From positions 1-7,106 of the forward strand of contig CAYXWT010000039.1 in assembly GCA_964468895.1 (NCBI GenBank): 7,106 nucleotides of DNA, in the 5' to 3' direction. Numbering within the stretch: position 1 is the first letter of the stretch; every line of letters starts with the position of its first letter. The stretch is from an uncultured archaeon. Lineage in GTDB: Archaea; Iainarchaeota; Iainarchaeia; Iainarchaeales; CSSED10-239. The translations under genes were made by a program, and so were the position numbers. Positions 165-7,106 of this stretch are shown in pieces. The notes under the pieces are model-generated. The model did no database searches. It was not told the origin of the DNA and was given only the letters and a program-made list of their open reading frames with translations.

Positions 165-692
165 TTAAAGTTTGTTTATTATTGCCATTTTTTCTATAAT
201 TTGATCTTCTATATCTTTTTTAGATTTTATATTATAAAATCTAAGGGCTTTATTTTGATTATATTTTTCTATTTTTAATTCTTTTAAATCTAAATTGTTT
301 GTAATTTTATTAATATCTTTTGTAGTTATTTCTTTTGAACTTACAATTTCTAAGAAAACATTATTTTTACCTTTTTTAATAAAAAATCCTTTGTCTATTT
401 TGTTTAACTGATTGCTACAATTTAAAGTTAAAAGTATTTCATTTTTAAGATTTTTAGAAGTGTTAATTTTATCAAATATTCTATTTTTGGATATAAATAT
501 AGCCCATAACAGGTGATTTTTACTGTATATTTGTGTGTTTGGTATTATTAATATGTCTAAATAAGATTTTTTATCATTTTTTTGATCTTCAATTCTTTTT
601 AAATAGTTTTCTATATTATTAATATTTATAGATCCATAAATATTATATATAAAGATCTTCTTTTTTCCTAAACTAAAATAATGTTTGTTCAT
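165..692 (-). CDS. cgi121: KEOPS complex subunit Cgi121 (kinase-binding protein CGI-121 family)
   Basis: This is a 175-aa ORF. The core HLLWAIFISKNRIFDKINTSKNLKNEILLTLNCSNQLNKIDKGFFIKKGKNNVFLEIV parallels the conserved Cgi121/TPRKB block (human ...[46 protein letters not shown]; M. jannaschii ...HVLHAINQAKTKKPIAKSFWMEILVRASGQRQIHEAIKIIGAKDGNVCLI). The C-terminal helix DIEDQIIEKMAIINKL parallels ...VERVLEKIALIELKK. Size fits the family. Confidence 0.65.
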   Translation of the reverse strand: MNKHYFSLGKKKIFIYNIYGSININNIENYLKRIEDQKNDKKSYLDILIIPNTQIYSKNHLLWAIFISKNRIFDKINTSKNLKNEILLTLNCSNQLNKIDKGFFIKKGKNNVFLEIVSSKEITTKDINKITNNLDLKELKIEKYNQNKALRFYNIKSKKDIEDQIIEKMAIINKL

Positions 693-812: not shown

Positions 813-1208
813 ATGGTTGAATGGAGAAAAAAATCAAAAAGAAAATCAACAGGCGGCATTAATAACGCTACAAATAGAAAAACAAAATCTTTAAGTGATA
901 GAGGTGGACTTTTTTCTAAAACTGTTGTTGATGAAGATAGTAAAAGATACAAAGTTAGAACTATTGGTGGCGGTAGTAAAACAAAATTAGCAAAGACAAA
1001 TGATATTTTGGTTTCTAGTGGTGCTAAAACTATTAAATGTAAAATTGTAGGTGTTGAAAATAATTCTGCAAATAAACATTTTGTAAGACAAAAAGTAGTA
1101 ACTAAAGGTGCTATCTTAAAGGTTGAATTAGAAGGTAAAGAGACTAAAGTTAAAGTAACTAGTAGACCTGGTCAAAGTGGTCAAGTAAGTGGAATTGTTA
1201 TAAAATAG
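813..1208 (+). CDS. rps8e: 30S ribosomal protein S8e
   Basis: This is a 131-aa ORF. The N-terminus W-x-K-K-S-K-R-K-S-T-GG matches the S8e signature W(Q/H)xxSxRKxTGG. The internal KVRTIGGGSKTKL corresponds to the canonical (R/K)VRxRGGNxKxR(A/L) block. The C-terminus VTSRPGQSGQVSGIVI matches (V/I)TSRPGQDGxxNAVL. The preceding RBS and the higher local GC than neighbouring genes fit a highly expressed housekeeping gene. Confidence 0.9.
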   Translation: MVEWRKKSKRKSTGGINNATNRKTKSLSDRGGLFSKTVVDEDSKRYKVRTIGGGSKTKLAKTNDILVSSGAKTIKCKIVGVENNSANKHFVRQKVVTKGAILKVELEGKETKVKVTSRPGQSGQVSGIVIK

Positions 1209-1254: not shown

Positions 1255-1827
1255 ATGACATTTAAAAAAAATAGAAATTTGTTTTCTTTAAAACAAATAA
1301 AAAAAGATTTAAAAAATAAAAAAGAACTTAAAAAGTCCTTTATTTTTTTAATTTATTTTTTAGTTATATTTGTAGTTGTTTATTTATTTTTAAATAATGT
1401 GCTTTATAATTATATTAATTATTGTTATGGTTTTATTTCTAATTTTATAATTTCAAATATGTTTGGTATAAATACCAGTTTTATATTTGATGATATTAAT
1501 CTTATTTCTGTAATACTTATTAATTCTTTAAATTATCCTGTATTTATAACTTTTTTATGTACTGGTATATTAGAATTTTCTTTAATAAGTTCTGCAATAT
1601 TAGCTTCCAAAGGTATTAGTTTAAAAAATAGAATTTATGGTTTTTTACTTAGTATTCCTTTAGTAATTGTATTTAATATTTTTAGAATAGTTTGTACAAT
1701 TTTAATGATAATTTATTTTTCATTACCATTAGCAGAGTTTTTACATTCTTTTTTATTTAGATTATTTTTAATAATAATTGTAATTGGTTTTTATTATTTC
1801 TGGTTTAAATTTTATTATAATAAATAA
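1255..1827 (+). CDS. Exosortase/archaeosortase-family integral membrane transpeptidase, minimal 190-aa form
   Basis: The protein has a Lys-rich N-terminus followed by about 5 hydrophobic helices. Family-type motifs occur in the right order at helix ends: F-L-C-T-G (Cys102, nt 1558-1560), N-I-F-R-I (Asn141/Arg144, nt 1675-1686) and E-F-L-H-S (His164, nt 1744-1746). The Cys-to-Arg spacing of 42 residues is about what I recall for Haloferax ArtA (Cys173/Arg214). A candidate substrate gene with a C-terminal motif + TM + basic tail lies nearby. Confidence 0.6.
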   Translation: MTFKKNRNLFSLKQIKKDLKNKKELKKSFIFLIYFLVIFVVVYLFLNNVLYNYINYCYGFISNFIISNMFGINTSFIFDDINLISVILINSLNYPVFITFLCTGILEFSLISSAILASKGISLKNRIYGFLLSIPLVIVFNIFRIVCTILMIIYFSLPLAEFLHSFLFRLFLIIIVIGFYYFWFKFYYNK

Positions 1828-1839
1828 GAATAAGAATAT

Positions 1840-2226
1840 TTAAGATTTACTATCTTTAATTAGTTTTTTTACTTGTTCAACTGTTGTATATTCTAATGGA
1901 TTTATGTTTTCTATAATATACTTCATTTCTTTTAATTCTTCAGCTTTAGCAAATCTTTTTGTAAAAAGTTCCATGTTTGTTTCTAAGGATCTAATTTTTT
2001 TTGTAATTTTATCTTGTTGATCTAATATTTCAGTAATTTTAGAGTTATCAATATCACTGTTGGAAGATCCACTGCTTTTGGATGCAATTTTTTTATTTAA
2101 AATTAAAATATTTCTTCCAAGTATTTTTTCATTATGTACTAAATATTTAATTTTTTGAGATAATACAAGTATACTTGATTGTAATGCTTTAATATCTTGC
2201 ATTATTCCTGGTTGTTCATCACTCAT
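1840..2226 (-). CDS. Hypothetical coiled-coil protein, 128 aa, no predicted TM segment or signal peptide
   Basis: The ORF is complete and convergent with the sortase-like gene (12-nt gap) and divergent from the surface-protein gene. It has two heptad-like helical segments, IMQDIKALQSSILVLSQKIKYLVHNEKILGRNILILNKKI and ITEILDQQDKITKKIRSLETNMELFTKRFAKAEELKEMKYII. These are separated by a Ser-rich linker, SKSSGSSNSDIDNS. I recognise no family. Confidence 0.55.
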   Translation of the reverse strand: MSDEQPGIMQDIKALQSSILVLSQKIKYLVHNEKILGRNILILNKKIASKSSGSSNSDIDNSKITEILDQQDKITKKIRSLETNMELFTKRFAKAEELKEMKYIIENINPLEYTTVEQVKKLIKDSKS

Positions 2227-2407: not shown

Positions 2408-2497
2408 GTGATTGTTATGATTTTAAAAATAAAAAAAATATTTACTTTATTAATGTTATCTATTTGTTTAATTATATTTACAAATAATATATTTGCA
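2408..2497 (+). other. N-terminal Sec-type signal peptide of the surface protein
   Basis: MIVMILKIKK is the basic n-region, IFTLLMLSICLIIF the hydrophobic core and TNNIFA/IS the small-residue cleavage context. The cleavage position is estimated by eye. Confidence 0.6.
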
Positions 2498-5449
2498 ATA
2501 TCTTTAAATATAGATTCTTTTCAAGTAAGAACAGATTCCTATAATTTTTATGATAATGTACAGCAAGGTAACTATTATGATAATGTAGATTTGAAGATGA
2601 ATTTTTCTATAGATCAATTACTATCTAATAATAATTATTTACCTGTATTATTAAATTCAAAAATATATGGTTTACTTCCAAATGGCCAAATAGTTTTAAT
2701 AGATGTAATGCCTACTATGCATCATAATATTTATTCAACTAATATTGAAGAATACTTCTCAAATAATTTATTTTATTTAGATCCCAGTTTTGCAGCTTAC
2801 ATGATTTCTTTAAATATAAATTCTTTAGATAATTCTTATTCTGATGTAGATTATGCTTATATTTTTTCAGATTATACAATTTATGAAAATTTTTATGATG
2901 AAGATTATTTTGAAGATTTTGAAGATTCAGAAAATCCTAATTCAAATGAAGATGATGATTTGCCAGATGATGAATTTGAAGATGATTTTAGTTTAAGTGG
3001 TGTTCAAGATTTTTATTTAGATGAAGATGAAAAAGAAGATTATAAATTATATCTTAAAAATAATTCAGATGAAGAACTTCAAATAATTTCTATAACTACT
3101 AATGAACCTACAAGATTAGATGTAGAAGATATTGATTATTCTGAGTTTATTAATAGTGATTCAACAGCTACTATTACTTTAGAATTATTAAGTGATACTG
3201 TAAGTAGTGATTATACTGGTGAATTAGAAATAAATGTAATGGCTAGATATTTAGAACAAGATGATATTAGTAAAACTTATGTTTCTAATTATCATATTGA
3301 AGATGAAGATTCTCAAAATACAAGTGATTGTTCAGATTTAGAAATAGACAATTCTAGATTTACTATAAATGATAATTTTATTAGTAATTTAGAAATAATT
3401 TTAATAAATGAAAGTGATGATTATTATTTTGAATTAGATGAAGTTAATATTGAATCTGATTCAATATTAGAAACAAAGGTTGTAAATTTTACTGAAGAAA
3501 TTGATGAAGAAAGTAATGGTGTTATTAATTTAGAAGTTATTAGTGATGATATTTCTAATAATACTACTAGAACTATTGAACTTGAAATTGAAGGTTATTT
3601 TAAAAGAGAAAATAGAGATTCAGAAAAGTGTAGAATTTCAAAAAATTTAAGAATAAATGTTGAGGATAATTCTTCTAATGAAGATAATTCTACCTCTCAA
3701 ACTAATTGTAACAATTTAATTTTATTTACTCCAAGTATTATTCAAGAAGAAAATACTATTAAAAACTATAATAAAAACAAAGGTTTTTTTGTAATAAATA
3801 ATAGTAATAAAGAATTTACTATTACTAATCTAATAATAAGTGATAATACTTCTAAATCAACACTTTCTAAAAATATAAGTTCTACTAAAATTTACGCAAA
3901 TTCAGATTTGTCTTTAGATTTTGATTTACAAACTAATGAAATTACTAATAATTTAATTTATTCAAAAGCAAATGTTTCTATAAGTGGAACTTTTTCAGAT
4001 GGTAGTATTTGTAATGCATTAGACACTAAACAAAATTTTGATTTATCAATAGTTAGTTCTGAAGATAAATGTTCTAAAATTGGATTAAGATCCAAAATAA
4101 TAACCACAGGTAATAATACTATTACTTTATTTAATAATTCAGATTTGTCTTTTTATGTTACTGATTTTTTAGAAGCAAATAAATTTAATTTAGAATCTAA
4201 TGTTAATTCTGTTCAGCATACTATTGAAAAAAATAAAACTAAAGATGTTAGTGTTGGTTTTTCAGGAAATGGATCTTTAGAATTAAAATTAAATGGAGTA
4301 TTTTCAGATGGAACTAATTGTTCATTTAGTGAAACTAGAAGTGGAATATTTGCTTCAACAAATATTTCAGAAATTGATTTTGCTGCAAATATAGATAATT
4401 GTTCATTTCAATTAGAGGTTCCTAGTTATTTAGAGATAGACGATTCTTATGAAACTATTAATTTAAATTTTAAAAATTTAAGTGTTAATGGTGGAAAAAT
4501 AACTTTAATAGGAAATGGAGTTGTAGTAAATCCATCTATAATTTATTTAGATGGTCAAGACGATTTTCAAAAAAACATAGTTATTTCTAATTTTTATGAA
4601 CCAGAAAGTGTTTTTTATAATGTTAAATTAAATGGTTGTGAAACAAAAACAGATTTTACTAATTTAGAAGAAAAAATAGATGTTTCTAAAAGAATTTATT
4701 TTGTTAGTTACCCTAATTTATTAAAGCCAAGTTCTAAATTAGTTGTTGTTGATTTAGAAATTAATAATTCTTATAATACTAAACAAAATATTAAACTTAA
4801 AGTTAGTGGATTTCCTTCTAGTTGGACTATTGAATCTAAAGATGTTCTTTTAAATGAAAGAACTTCTAATACTTTAAATTATTCATTTTATATAGATGAT
4901 TTAAATAATTCTAAAAAATACAATGGTTATATTGAAATTTATAAAAATAATTTAAAAATTAATTCTGTACCTTTAACTGTTGATTTAACTAAACCTACTA
5001 AAGAACTAATAATGAAATCTAGTTTAAGTAAATTAAATAGTTTAGAAAATACTTATGCTTTAGAGTTGTTTATAAATAATAAAAGTAATTCTTCTAAAGA
5101 ATATGTTGTTGATTTTAATTTAGATGGAAATTATGTTGTTGAAGGTAATAAAGAAATTAATTTGTTAGCTGATGAAAATAAAACTATAGAATATAAAATT
5201 GTTACTTTTGCTTTATTGAAAGATAGTTCTGTTATTGATGTTATTATAAAAGATAAAGTTAGTGGTGAAGAATTAGAATCTTCAGAATTAGTTTATACTT
5301 TAGAGAACAATGTTGGTTTAACTGGATTTTTAGTTTTTAATAGTTTATTAACAGAAATTGGACTTGCTATTGTTTTAATAATTATAATTATTAGTATAAT
5401 TATACAAATCAAAAAAAACAAAATTTCTAAAAATAAACCTAAAATTTAG
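2408..5449 (+). CDS. Large secreted cell-surface (S-layer-like) glycoprotein candidate and putative archaeosortase substrate
   Basis: This is a 1013-aa ORF. It begins with a signal peptide (KIKKIFTLLMLSICLIIFTNNIFA) and a roughly 130-aa N-terminal domain. A hyper-acidic linker follows, then a series of roughly 80-100-aa beta-sandwich-like modules. These have alternating hydrophobic patterns of the CARDB/NEW3 kind, e.g. LVVVDLEINNSYNTKQNIKLKVSGFPSSWTIES at nt 4739-4837. I hand-counted about 27 N-x-S/T sequons. The C-terminus is GLTGF, a hydrophobic helix and a KKNKISKNKPKI tail. No enzymatic motif was recognised. Confidence 0.8.
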   Translation: MIVMILKIKKIFTLLMLSICLIIFTNNIFAISLNIDSFQVRTDSYNFYDNVQQGNYYDNVDLKMNFSIDQLLSNNNYLPVLLNSKIYGLLPNGQIVLIDVMPTMHHNIYSTNIEEYFSNNLFYLDPSFAAYMISLNINSLDNSYSDVDYAYIFSDYTIYENFYDEDYFEDFEDSENPNSNEDDDLPDDEFEDDFSLSGVQDFYLDEDEKEDYKLYLKNNSDEELQIISITTNEPTRLDVEDIDYSEFINSDSTATITLELLSDTVSSDYTGELEINVMARYLEQDDISKTYVSNYHIEDEDSQNTSDCSDLEIDNSRFTINDNFISNLEIILINESDDYYFELDEVNIESDSILETKVVNFTEEIDEESNGVINLEVISDDISNNTTRTIELEIEGYFKRENRDSEKCRISKNLRINVEDNSSNEDNSTSQTNCNNLILFTPSIIQEENTIKNYNKNKGFFVINNSNKEFTITNLIISDNTSKSTLSKNISSTKIYANSDLSLDFDLQTNEITNNLIYSKANVSISGTFSDGSICNALDTKQNFDLSIVSSEDKCSKIGLRSKIITTGNNTITLFNNSDLSFYVTDFLEANKFNLESNVNSVQHTIEKNKTKDVSVGFSGNGSLELKLNGVFSDGTNCSFSETRSGIFASTNISEIDFAANIDNCSFQLEVPSYLEIDDSYETINLNFKNLSVNGGKITLIGNGVVVNPSIIYLDGQDDFQKNIVISNFYEPESVFYNVKLNGCETKTDFTNLEEKIDVSKRIYFVSYPNLLKPSSKLVVVDLEINNSYNTKQNIKLKVSGFPSSWTIESKDVLLNERTSNTLNYSFYIDDLNNSKKYNGYIEIYKNNLKINSVPLTVDLTKPTKELIMKSSLSKLNSLENTYALELFINNKSNSSKEYVVDFNLDGNYVVEGNKEINLLADENKTIEYKIVTFALLKDSSVIDVIIKDKVSGEELESSELVYTLENNVGLTGFLVFNSLLTEIGLAIVLIIIIISIIIQIKKNKISKNKPKI
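2894..3040 (+). other. Hyper-acidic, aromatic-studded linker in the surface protein
   Basis: The segment translates to YDEDYFEDFEDSENPNSNEDDDLPDDEFEDDFSLSGVQDFYLDEDEKED. More than half of the residues are D or E, interspersed with F/Y and with only one basic residue (a single Lys). Confidence 0.8.
3329..4639 (+). repeat. Four divergent tandem protein modules, each bracketed by a cysteine pair, arising from internal duplication in the surface-protein gene
   Basis: All 8 cysteines of the mature protein lie here: TGT codons at 3329, 3629, 3707, 4010, 4070, 4319, 4400 and 4637. Their spacings alternate long and short: 100, 26, 101, 20, 83, 27 and 79 residues. Modules start C-x-x-[LI]-x-[LIV] (CSDLEI, CNNLIL, CSKIGL, CSFQLE). 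They end [ILV]-x-G-x-F...C (IEGYFKRENRDSEKC, ISGTFSDGSIC, LNGVFSDGTNC, and the more diverged VKLNGC, which keeps only the G...C). DNA-level relics survive: identical TTCAGATTTGTCTTT at 3901-3915 and 4138-4152, and TTTTCAGATGG at 3992-4002 and 4301-4311. Confidence 0.65.
5315..5446 (+). other. C-terminal tripartite sorting-signal candidate: motif, TM helix and basic tail
   Basis: The segment reads G-L-T-G-F-LVFNSLLTE-IGLAIVLIIIIISIIIQI-KKNKISKNKPKI*. A short Gly/aromatic motif (TGF codons at 5321-5329) is followed by an 18-residue hydrophobic helix and a Lys-rich cytoplasmic tail at the extreme C-terminus. This is the architecture recognised by sortases, exosortases and archaeosortases. Confidence 0.55.
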
Positions 5450-5577: not shown

Positions 5578-7106
5578 ATGAATTATAAGAAAATTGTATT
5601 TTCTTGTTTTGTATTTGTAATAACTGTTTGTTTTTTAACAAATTTTATTAATTCTGAGATTGCAATAGATAATAGTGCCCCCAAATTTAAAAATAATAAT
5701 AATGGTGAACTAACATTTTATTCTAATAGTTCAAGTTTAAAATTAAACAAAACTTCCATTTCAACTTATTCTTCTAAACCTGCTGATTTATCTGAAGCTT
5801 CTAAAAAATTAAATTCTAATTCTGAAAAAAAAATTATTTCTAAAAAAGAAAAATTCGATACCATTGATTTTAGTGAATTAAATTTAGATATATTTTCATT
5901 TTTAAATGTAAATGTAGAAGAACCACATGTTGATTATGACTTAGTTGATGAATTAAGTAATGATTTATTATTTCCTCCTGAAGAAGTGATTTCAAAGGAA
6001 GAATACACAGAATTATTAAGATTAGCAGCAAGTAATAGAGATCCTCCAATAAATTCTAATTCAAATACTACTGTTCCAAATTTAACAGGGACTTGTCCTA
6101 CTACTGGTGAGATACACATTCCAGTTTTATTAGTTGATTTTGCTGATCAACCACATACATTAGAAAGTACTGTTTATGAAGATATGTATAATTCAGATAA
6201 TTATTTGGATGATTCTGGAATAAGTGTAAAGGATTATTATTTACATGAATCTTATGGTTCACTTAATTTTGTTTTTGATATTTATGATTGGCAAACACTA
6301 AGTAATAATACTTATGAGTATTATAGAAATACATCTTCTACTCAATGGGAAATGATGTTAGATACTATTAATTTATTTGATAGTAATGTAGATTTTAGTC
6401 AATATGATAATGATGGTGATGGAAGATTAGATGGAATAGTTATAATACCAGCAGGAAATAATAGTTCAACTTATGGAATAAGATCACATGTTAGAATATT
6501 AAAAGAATATGATAGTAATCCTGTTGATGGAAAATATCTTGGAAATACAGCTTTAATTCCAGAAATAAGTTCAGGAAGTGCTTGTTATCCTGAAGATTGT
6601 AGGACTGTTGTAAATACTGTTACTCATGAAATGGGTCATATATTAGGACTTCCAGATCTTTATGAAATAAATCCAACAACTGGAGCTCAAGAAGGTTTAG
6701 GTATAAATGCATTAAGTATGATGAGTTGGACAAGTACTAATTCTCAAAAACCTATAAATTTAGATCCTTGGAGTAGATTTTATTTAGGTTGGTTAGAAGG
6801 TACTTTTATAGGTACATATGGTCCAAGTATGCAAGAAAATGAAGATCTTTGTAATGATACTATCCAAACACTTAGAAGTGTAAATGATTATCCTGATTTA
6901 GTAGTAGTAAGTTCAAATCATTTAAATGATAGAGAATTCTTTTTGGTGGAAAACAGATTTGTAGATGTAGATGATCCTAATAATTTGGATGTTGGTAATG
7001 ATATGGTTGTAGATCCTGATGATGAATTTGGACATTTAGGTTTAGCAATATATCATATAGATGAACAATATATTGAAGATAATTTTTTAACAAACAGTAT
7101 TGCTCA
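5578..7106 (+). CDS. Secreted M6-family (immune inhibitor A-like) zinc metalloprotease, 3'-truncated by the window edge
   Basis: I translated this by hand in frame 1; it is open from ATG 5578 to the window end (509 full codons). It is absent from the ORF track because it has no stop in the window. The signal peptide is MNYKKIVFSCFVFVITVCFLTNFINS. M6-domain hallmarks appear in order: TGEIHIPVLLVDFADQ, VKDYYLHESYGSLNF, VDFSQYDNDGDGRLDGIVII, THEMGHILGLPDLY and LDPWSRFYLGWL. Confidence 0.85.
   Translation, partial: MNYKKIVFSCFVFVITVCFLTNFINSEIAIDNSAPKFKNNNNGELTFYSNSSSLKLNKTSISTYSSKPADLSEASKKLNSNSEKKIISKKEKFDTIDFSELNLDIFSFLNVNVEEPHVDYDLVDELSNDLLFPPEEVISKEEYTELLRLAASNRDPPINSNSNTTVPNLTGTCPTTGEIHIPVLLVDFADQPHTLESTVYEDMYNSDNYLDDSGISVKDYYLHESYGSLNFVFDIYDWQTLSNNTYEYYRNTSSTQWEMMLDTINLFDSNVDFSQYDNDGDGRLDGIVIIPAGNNSSTYGIRSHVRILKEYDSNPVDGKYLGNTALIPEISSGSACYPEDCRTVVNTVTHEMGHILGLPDLYEINPTTGAQEGLGINALSMMSWTSTNSQKPINLDPWSRFYLGWLEGTFIGTYGPSMQENEDLCNDTIQTLRSVNDYPDLVVVSSNHLNDREFFLVENRFVDVDDPNNLDVGNDMVVDPDDEFGHLGLAIYHIDEQYIEDNFLTNSIA
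6625..6663 (+). other. Zinc-binding / catalytic HExxH motif of the M6 protease
   Basis: The codons read H-E-M-G-H-I-L-G-L-P-D-L-Y. This matches the M6 consensus HE(F/M)GHxLGLPDxY. Confidence 0.85.

Follow-up and report, generated by a model that had tools for sequence, protein, structure and literature searches.

The locus

The window, that is, the whole 7,106-bp stretch of DNA that was analysed, has a G+C content of about 20% and carries, directly downstream of the gene for ribosomal protein S8e, an ATG-start open reading frame (ORF) for a membrane protein of 190 amino acids. The next two genes encode a predicted coiled-coil protein, on the opposite strand, and a large surface protein, again on the forward strand, whose C-terminus carries a candidate sorting signal. 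The features are as follows:

813..1208, + strand: ribosomal protein S8e gene (Pfam PF01201, 70.4 bits versus 30.2; TIGR00307, 75.9 bits)
1255..1827, + strand: small archaeosortase-family protein, 190 aa, of an Iainarchaeota subfamily without a name (ORF; TIGR04178; 42 homologues; AlphaFold2 pLDDT 90)
1546..1812, + strand: catalytic signature region, residues 98–186, equivalent to TIGR04178 positions 3–94 of 97 and covering the last three membrane helices (profile match and AlphaFold2 helices)
1558..1560, + strand: codon tgt of Cys102, the presumed nucleophile, in TFLCTGI; motif L-C-T-G-x-x-E (Cys in 40/40 close and 122/123 divergent relatives)
1684..1686, + strand: codon aga of Arg144, in NIFRIVC; motif F-N-x-x-R-I (Arg in 40/40 close and 123/123 divergent relatives)
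1744..1746, + strand: codon cat of His164, in EFLHSFL; motif H-x-x-L-F-R, in which Arg169 follows (read from the sequence; alignments)
1840..2226, − strand: predicted coiled-coil protein, 128 aa (128–130 aa in relatives), found between the sortase and surface-protein genes at every locus
2417..5449, + strand: candidate substrate, a 1,010-aa secreted all-β multi-domain surface protein, S-layer-like (ORF, AlphaFold2, Foldseek)
5318..5338, + strand: signature motif L-T-G-F-L-V-F of the candidate signal; consensus [LI]-[TS]-[GA]-F-[FL]-x-[FL] (orthologues; short AlphaFold2 strand over GFLVF)
5357..5404, + strand: hydrophobic transmembrane (TM) core of the C-terminal signal, IGLAIVLIIIIISIII (AlphaFold2, sequence)
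5405..5446, + strand: basic, putatively cytoplasmic tail, QIKKNKISKNKPKI, which completes the tripartite signal as its third part (sequence)

The 190-aa ORF and its S8e neighbour had both been claimed in a first-pass annotation of this DNA, and both are real: the ORF has 42 length-matched homologues, and the upstream ORF passes Pfam Ribosomal_S8e as well as TIGR00307. The positions given there for Cys102 (in FLCTG), Arg144 (in NIFRI) and His164 (in EFLHS) are exact in the translation. Judged from its sequence, the ORF at 1255..1827 encodes a true archaeosortase-family membrane protein of a DPANN archaeon. Further upstream, on the reverse strand (165..692), lies the gene for the KEOPS subunit Cgi121 (NF011465, 42.4 bits; Pfam CGI-121, 36.8 bits), which is divergent to S8e, an arrangement kept in the related loci examined.

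A member of the archaeosortase superfamily outside the named subfamilies

The protein passes TIGR04178, the exosortase/archaeosortase signature, with 43.5 bits against a cut-off of 23 (E = 2.9e-11; residues 98–186, model positions 3–94 of 97), which upholds the family call made in the first-pass annotation. The other models named there gave no such support. Pfam PF09721 (Exosortase_EpsH) stays below threshold for the 190-aa protein, at 11.5 bits against a gathering threshold of 25.7, precomputed matches to it being present on several homologues, and none of the ArtA–ArtG subfamily models matches the protein at E ≤ 1. In the NCBIfam scan at E ≤ 1 it passed no subfamily model: only XrtG (TIGR03110) shows up, at 12.8 bits against a curated cut-off of 102.75, with no match at that E-value to ArtA (TIGR04125), ArtB, ArtC, ArtD, ArtE, ArtF, ArtH or pacearchaeosortase (NF033505). 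Ten sampled relatives, scanned singly against the subfamily models, all remained well under the curated cut-offs. By profile matching, the protein belongs to the exosortase/archaeosortase superfamily and lies outside every named subfamily as defined by their models.

A word-indexed search returned 42 full-length homologues of 173–211 aa from many samples (E-values from 1e-26 to 1e-108, 45–77% identity), and an unfiltered HMMER scan of 1.84 billion cluster representatives returned 454 at E ≤ 1e-3, 169 of them at E ≤ 1e-10. Residue conservation was read from two sets of relatives: a close set, consisting of a 40-sequence alignment that was also the input for AlphaFold2, and a divergent set, consisting of 123 of the HMMER relatives, whose identity to the window protein is 21–37%, with the exception of a single close homologue (53%). 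In the close set, C102, E107, N141, R144, T148 and H164 are invariant. Across the divergent set, N141, R144 and H164 are each found in 123 of 123 sequences, C102 in 122 and E107 in 118, and position 169 is arginine in 111 and lysine in 12. The cysteine, arginine and histidine singled out in the first-pass annotation are thus indeed the conserved residues, present in 40/40 close relatives and in 122/123, 123/123 and 123/123 divergent ones, respectively. Cys, Arg and His also make up the catalytic triad suspected for the superfamily (Haft, bioRxiv 10.1101/2023.06.07.544157).

All 123 divergent relatives match TIGR04178, and 29 of them show a weak match to the pacearchaeosortase model NF033505. 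A profile search with the 123 sequences led to small DPANN proteins only, and a tblastn search against plasmids, looking for ArtA, gave no match. In a scan of GTDB species representatives, the subfamily was present in 15 species, all of them archaeal metagenome-assembled genomes (MAGs) of Iainarchaeota type; a complete genome that carries it is that of Ca. Forterrea multitransposorum (839,632 bp). On these searches, the protein belongs to an unnamed sortase subfamily that is confined, as far as sampled, to the Iainarchaeota (Diapherotrites, DPANN). Several of its close homologues have already been named 'exosortase/archaeosortase family protein' by NCBI/JGI, and the 190-aa protein adds a member to a known superfamily. 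A literature search found no paper connecting archaeosortases with Iainarchaeota or Forterrea.

In two of the relatives, P0106 (1,102 aa) and P0199 (462 aa), the small-sortase domain is N-terminal and long extensions of unrelated sequence come after it. We considered these fusions as Rosetta stone evidence and rejected them as such, the extensions being unrelated or read-through-like and P0199 lying on a contig of 1.7 kb.

Size

The artA gene measures 912 bp in H. volcanii, corresponding to about 303 aa, and 834 bp in M. acetivorans (PMC7157517). With 190 aa, the window protein has about 63% of the length of H. volcanii ArtA, close to the roughly 60% claimed before. The accompanying description of the protein as a miniature enzyme or minimal core does not hold, as the curated subfamily models include equally short or shorter ones: ArtD and XrtM have 150 positions, ArtE 153, ArtB 156, XrtH 158, XrtX and XrtY 168, XrtF 174 and XrtG 187. 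Among the 123 divergent relatives the median length is 185 aa (interquartile range 175–199), and among the HMMER matches listed (150 of the 454) most fall between 150 and 230 aa. Since shorter named families exist, the argument from a minimal core brings nothing new, and the notion of an exceptional 190-aa archaeosortase is to be corrected: about 150–190 aa is a common size in many subfamilies.

Predicted structure and topology

The AlphaFold2 model of the sortase has a mean pLDDT of 90 and a pTM of 0.81. It contains five helices (residues 22–49, 51–69, 105–117, 123–154 and 157–188), in agreement with the 'roughly 5' anticipated in the first-pass annotation, and strands at 74–79, 84–89 and 96–98, with a β-hairpin at 74–89. 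C102, R144 and H164 lie on or beside the helices 105–117, 123–154 and 157–188. Taken together, hydropathy and the model describe a polytopic membrane protein with four clear TM helices, to which helix 51–69 and the β-hairpin, both of uncertain placement, are added. Among solved structures there was neither a sequence match nor a Foldseek match to the model at E ≤ 0.001, and the fold is therefore one without an experimental template.

Counted across the family, lysines and arginines together average 8.75 for the N-terminal segment, 3.05 for the loop 119–126 and 2.17 for the C-terminus, against 0–1.5 in the segments 48–100 and 155–157. Positive-inside charge counts alone thus favour a cytoplasmic location for the N-terminus, the loop 119–126 and the C-terminus. 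With this charge bias, the last three helices would run out-to-in (101–118), in-to-out (123–154) and out-to-in (157–188), which would put Cys102 at the outer boundary of the membrane and, inside the outer leaflet, His164 at a depth of about 7 residues and Arg144 at about 10. This placement of the active site is unchanged whether segment 48–100 is extracytoplasmic or forms two extra passes.

A large surface protein with a candidate tripartite C-terminal signal

The mechanical ORF of the large protein starts at GTG 2408; the ATG at 2417 (MILKIKK...) fits the orthologue at related locus L008 (MNLKINK...) better. In its AlphaFold2 model (pLDDT 72), about 70 strands in an all-β multi-domain arrangement lie between a signal helix at the N-terminus and a TM helix at the C-terminus, and the sequence contains 27 N-x-S/T sequons. 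The Foldseek matches are multi-Ig/ASH/MG (macroglobulin)-domain proteins, and there is no Pfam, NCBIfam or PDB sequence family match. A sequence search with the large protein returned only 6 matches, low-complexity words saturating it, and the family was assembled from the loci instead, which yielded 19 distinct orthologues.

Although only 33–66% identical overall, these 19 proteins share the motif, the TM segment and the basic cluster. The common C-terminal layout consists of [LI]-[TS]-[GA]-F-[FL]-x-[FL], then 3–8 mostly polar residues, then about 17–20 hydrophobic residues and finally a K/R cluster; in the window, the C-terminus reads GLTGFLVF-NSLLTE-IGLAIVLIIIIISIII-QIKKNKISKNKPKI (nt 5318–5446). 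As read from the orthologues, the layout is the one known from sortase, exosortase and archaeosortase signals, a tripartite architecture of motif, TM segment and basic cluster found in sortase-type substrates (PMC6098224; bioRxiv 10.1101/2023.06.07.544157). Across the fetched related loci (about 350 kb), the signal is carried by 18 of 18 complete large proteins and by 0 of 339 other ORFs of at least 80 aa. The PGF-CTERM model gave no match at E ≤ 10 on seven target tails, and of the curated CTERM models, LPXTG, Heimdall-CTERM and PEF-CTERM appeared on target tails below their cut-offs, covering the TM and basic part only.

In a Forterrea-like subgroup (loci L005, L017, L023, L025 and L026), the TM segment and basic cluster are followed by an extension of 50–60 aa that ends in a conserved (K/R)(Q/E)(I/V)T(L/F)x(E/D/Q)(L/V)(D/E). 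The conservation of this tail motif suggests that the C-terminus is more than a discarded fragment. An ArtA substrate with sequence beyond its signal is still cleaved (PMC6098224).

Gene neighbourhood

S8e lies directly upstream of the sortase gene, on the same strand, in all 26 related loci with upstream sequence, at a distance of 46 bp in the window and of −4 to +46 bp in relatives, and the two genes are probably co-transcribed. The order S8e, sortase, coiled-coil gene, large surface-protein gene is conserved across 15 GTDB species including Ca. Forterrea; the gene for the large protein (800–1,050 aa) lies 0.6–2 kb downstream of the sortase gene in related loci and is found downstream of it in 18/18 loci with enough sequence. 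The whole region is collinear in the clade, from L1/L10/L12 through a helicase, Cgi121 and S8e to the L3 operon, and with such region-wide synteny the adjacency is by itself weak evidence for a functional link. A distant small member of the family, in a Nanoarchaeia MAG, is found without such a surface-protein neighbour.

Among five loci, the coiled-coil protein between the two genes shows 63–91% identity, a higher conservation than that of its neighbours on both sides; QDIKALQSS and NINPLEYTT are examples of its long invariant blocks. Searches of Pfam, NCBIfam and PDB gave no match to it.

Other genes of the region were recorded as well. Just upstream of the large surface-protein gene, many relatives encode a small and extremely Tyr/Asn/Pro-rich protein of 118–125 aa with a signal peptide (L005:9443-9799, L006:9086-9463, L010:5752-6108), absent from the window and from L008, which may be an S-layer accessory protein. 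An M6-like protein begins downstream, at 5578..7106 (+), and runs past the end of the window; the full copy on the ENA contig L001 (L001:7580-9487, 635 aa) is secreted and combines the zinc motif HEMGHxxGLPD with a catalytic domain of the Peptidase_M6 family, immune inhibitor A-like (26.6 bits versus 22). We considered this peptidase as a second sortase substrate and rejected it, the full-length copy having no C-terminal TM helix. Past the window end, at L001:9609-10205, lies an ORF whose start, MKNKNAQISLEILAILGIV..., looks like a class III (type IV pilin-like) signal peptide of archaea. The sortase on L001 is identical to that of the window, and the spacer between the sortase stop and the coiled-coil gene (window 1828–1839) is 6 bp shorter there, so that at least two close strains have been sampled. 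On the related Iainarchaeota contig L010, a bAvd-like gene and a reverse transcriptase (RVT_1) lie just upstream of Cgi121 (L010:446-2600); the pair looks like a diversity-generating retroelement.

Proposed function and alternative explanations

We favour, at a probability of about 0.6, a reading in which the 190-aa protein would be a small cysteine protease/transpeptidase that serves the neighbouring S-layer-like protein of about 1,000 aa, cleaving it and anchoring it to lipid. The pairing of enzyme and target is favoured because the signal occurs in 18/18 large proteins against 0/339 other ORFs; pairing, cleavage and lipidation are what we infer. The large protein would first be exported by Sec, and just outside the TM anchor the sortase would recognize the motif [LI]-[TS]-[GA]-F-[FL]-x-[FL]. 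Attack of Cys102 on a peptide bond at or next to the motif would then free the TM helix and the basic tail and leave a thioester acyl-enzyme, with Arg144, His164, Asn141 and Arg169 presumably making up the rest of the active site. The intermediate could be resolved by the amine of a membrane lipid, to give a lipid-anchored surface protein by analogy with ArtA, or by transfer to water. For H. volcanii ArtA, the proposed model has a Cys173 thioester resolved by archaetidylethanolamine (PMC7157517). The result would be a dedicated pair of enzyme and target, expressed with ribosomal genes.

More tentatively, and as something we would not yet bet on at even odds, this can be extended to the whole subfamily: the Iainarchaeota sortases, fixed in an operon with S8e, would each serve one dedicated S-layer-like protein via a '[LI]-[TS]-[GA]-F-[FL]' signal that existing models do not describe, and in the Forterrea-like subgroup the released remnant, or an uncleaved pool, may have a cytoplasmic function of its own.

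The large protein might instead be permanently anchored by its TM helix next to an active archaeosortase whose true substrates are encoded elsewhere, the adjacency being frozen gene order in small DPANN genomes. The collinearity of the neighbourhood throughout the clade would be explained in this way, as would the Nanoarchaeia family member without such a neighbour; the conserved cytoplasmic tail motif of the Forterrea-like proteins, which suggests a functional C-terminus, and the signal that no known CTERM model matches point in the same direction. We nevertheless consider a permanent anchor unlikely, as the motif before the TM helix is the best-conserved element of an otherwise variable C-terminal linker in proteins that are 33–66% identical, the arrangement matches the three-part architecture of sortase-type signals exactly, and the signal appears in no other ORF of at least 80 aa across the roughly 350 kb of related loci. 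As to the Forterrea-like tail, the ArtA substrate that continues past its signal is cleaved all the same (PMC6098224).

Two further explanations concern the enzyme itself. It could have the family fold without being a protease, for example as a scaffold or lipid-handling membrane protein that keeps ancestral residues, and it may be said in favour of this that no small archaeosortase subfamily is known to have been characterized biochemically, and that the protein passes no subfamily model. At 21–37% identity, Cys, Arg, His and Asn are almost absolutely conserved, a pattern expected of a selected active site, and ArtA cannot do without residues of these classes (PMC9263693), which makes a non-protease improbable. 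That the ORF or its family match might be an artefact of AT-rich, hydrophobic composition comes to mind at a G+C content near 20%, where Ile/Phe/Leu-rich ORFs arise easily, and with a Pfam match below threshold. This is refuted by the TIGR04178 match (E = 2.9e-11), the 42 length-matched homologues at 45–77% identity, the 454 HMMER representatives and the confident AlphaFold2 model (pLDDT 90), and we give it practically no weight.

The favoured reading, of a sortase dedicated to its neighbour, would extend the pattern of a sortase with a CTERM target to the Iainarchaeota, with a proposed enzyme and target pair and a motif outside all curated models. What it adds to a known superfamily, namely a candidate cognate signal and a candidate target, is modest. 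If confirmed, the pair would identify the probable S-layer protein of uncultured host-dependent archaea and the way it is anchored. Furthermore, being small and adjacent, enzyme and target would offer a compact setting in which to test the specificity of archaeosortases by heterologous expression.

Comparison with known systems

The essential residues of H. volcanii ArtA include Cys173, Arg214 and Arg253 (PMC9263693). The window protein shares with ArtA the TIGR04178 signature and a similar spacing of cysteine and arginine (42 residues from C102 to R144, against 41 from C173 to R214), from which a putative equivalence of these residues is drawn; that Arg253 of ArtA is equivalent to Arg169 here is a guess. 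The likely target is in both cases a large secreted surface protein with a motif, a TM segment and a basic tail, and the G/A-F of the motif described here recalls PGF. The two differ in length (190 aa against about 303 aa) and in model matches, TIGR04125 being unmatched at E ≤ 1, and the signal here is not matched by the PGF-CTERM model and has its hydrophobic core separated from the motif by a short polar stretch.

From another DPANN lineage, NCBIfam names a sortase, pacearchaeosortase (NF033505), and a CTERM target, the putative S-layer protein PACE-CTERM (NF033506), which, judging by their names, would form a cognate pair. The window protein does not match NF033505 at E ≤ 1, the target tail reaches 6.8 bits on NF033506 against a cut-off of 110, and the lineage is Iainarchaeota rather than Pacearchaeota.

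The small named subfamilies ArtB, ArtD, ArtE, XrtG, XrtH, XrtM, XrtX and XrtY are of comparable or smaller size, with profiles of 150–187 positions, and have a whole-length architecture in common with the proteins described here, as the matches of the relatives cover almost the entire profiles. None of them is matched at its curated cut-off, however, and each has its own sorting signal, known or predicted.

Finally, XrtE/VPEID-CTERM, reportedly described by Haft and colleagues in 2012, is said to be a bacterial exosortase system dedicated to a single target. Although it is bacterial and uses another motif, it shares with the locus described here its basic plan: one sortase gene near one target gene, a candidate in our case, that encodes the cognate C-terminal signal.
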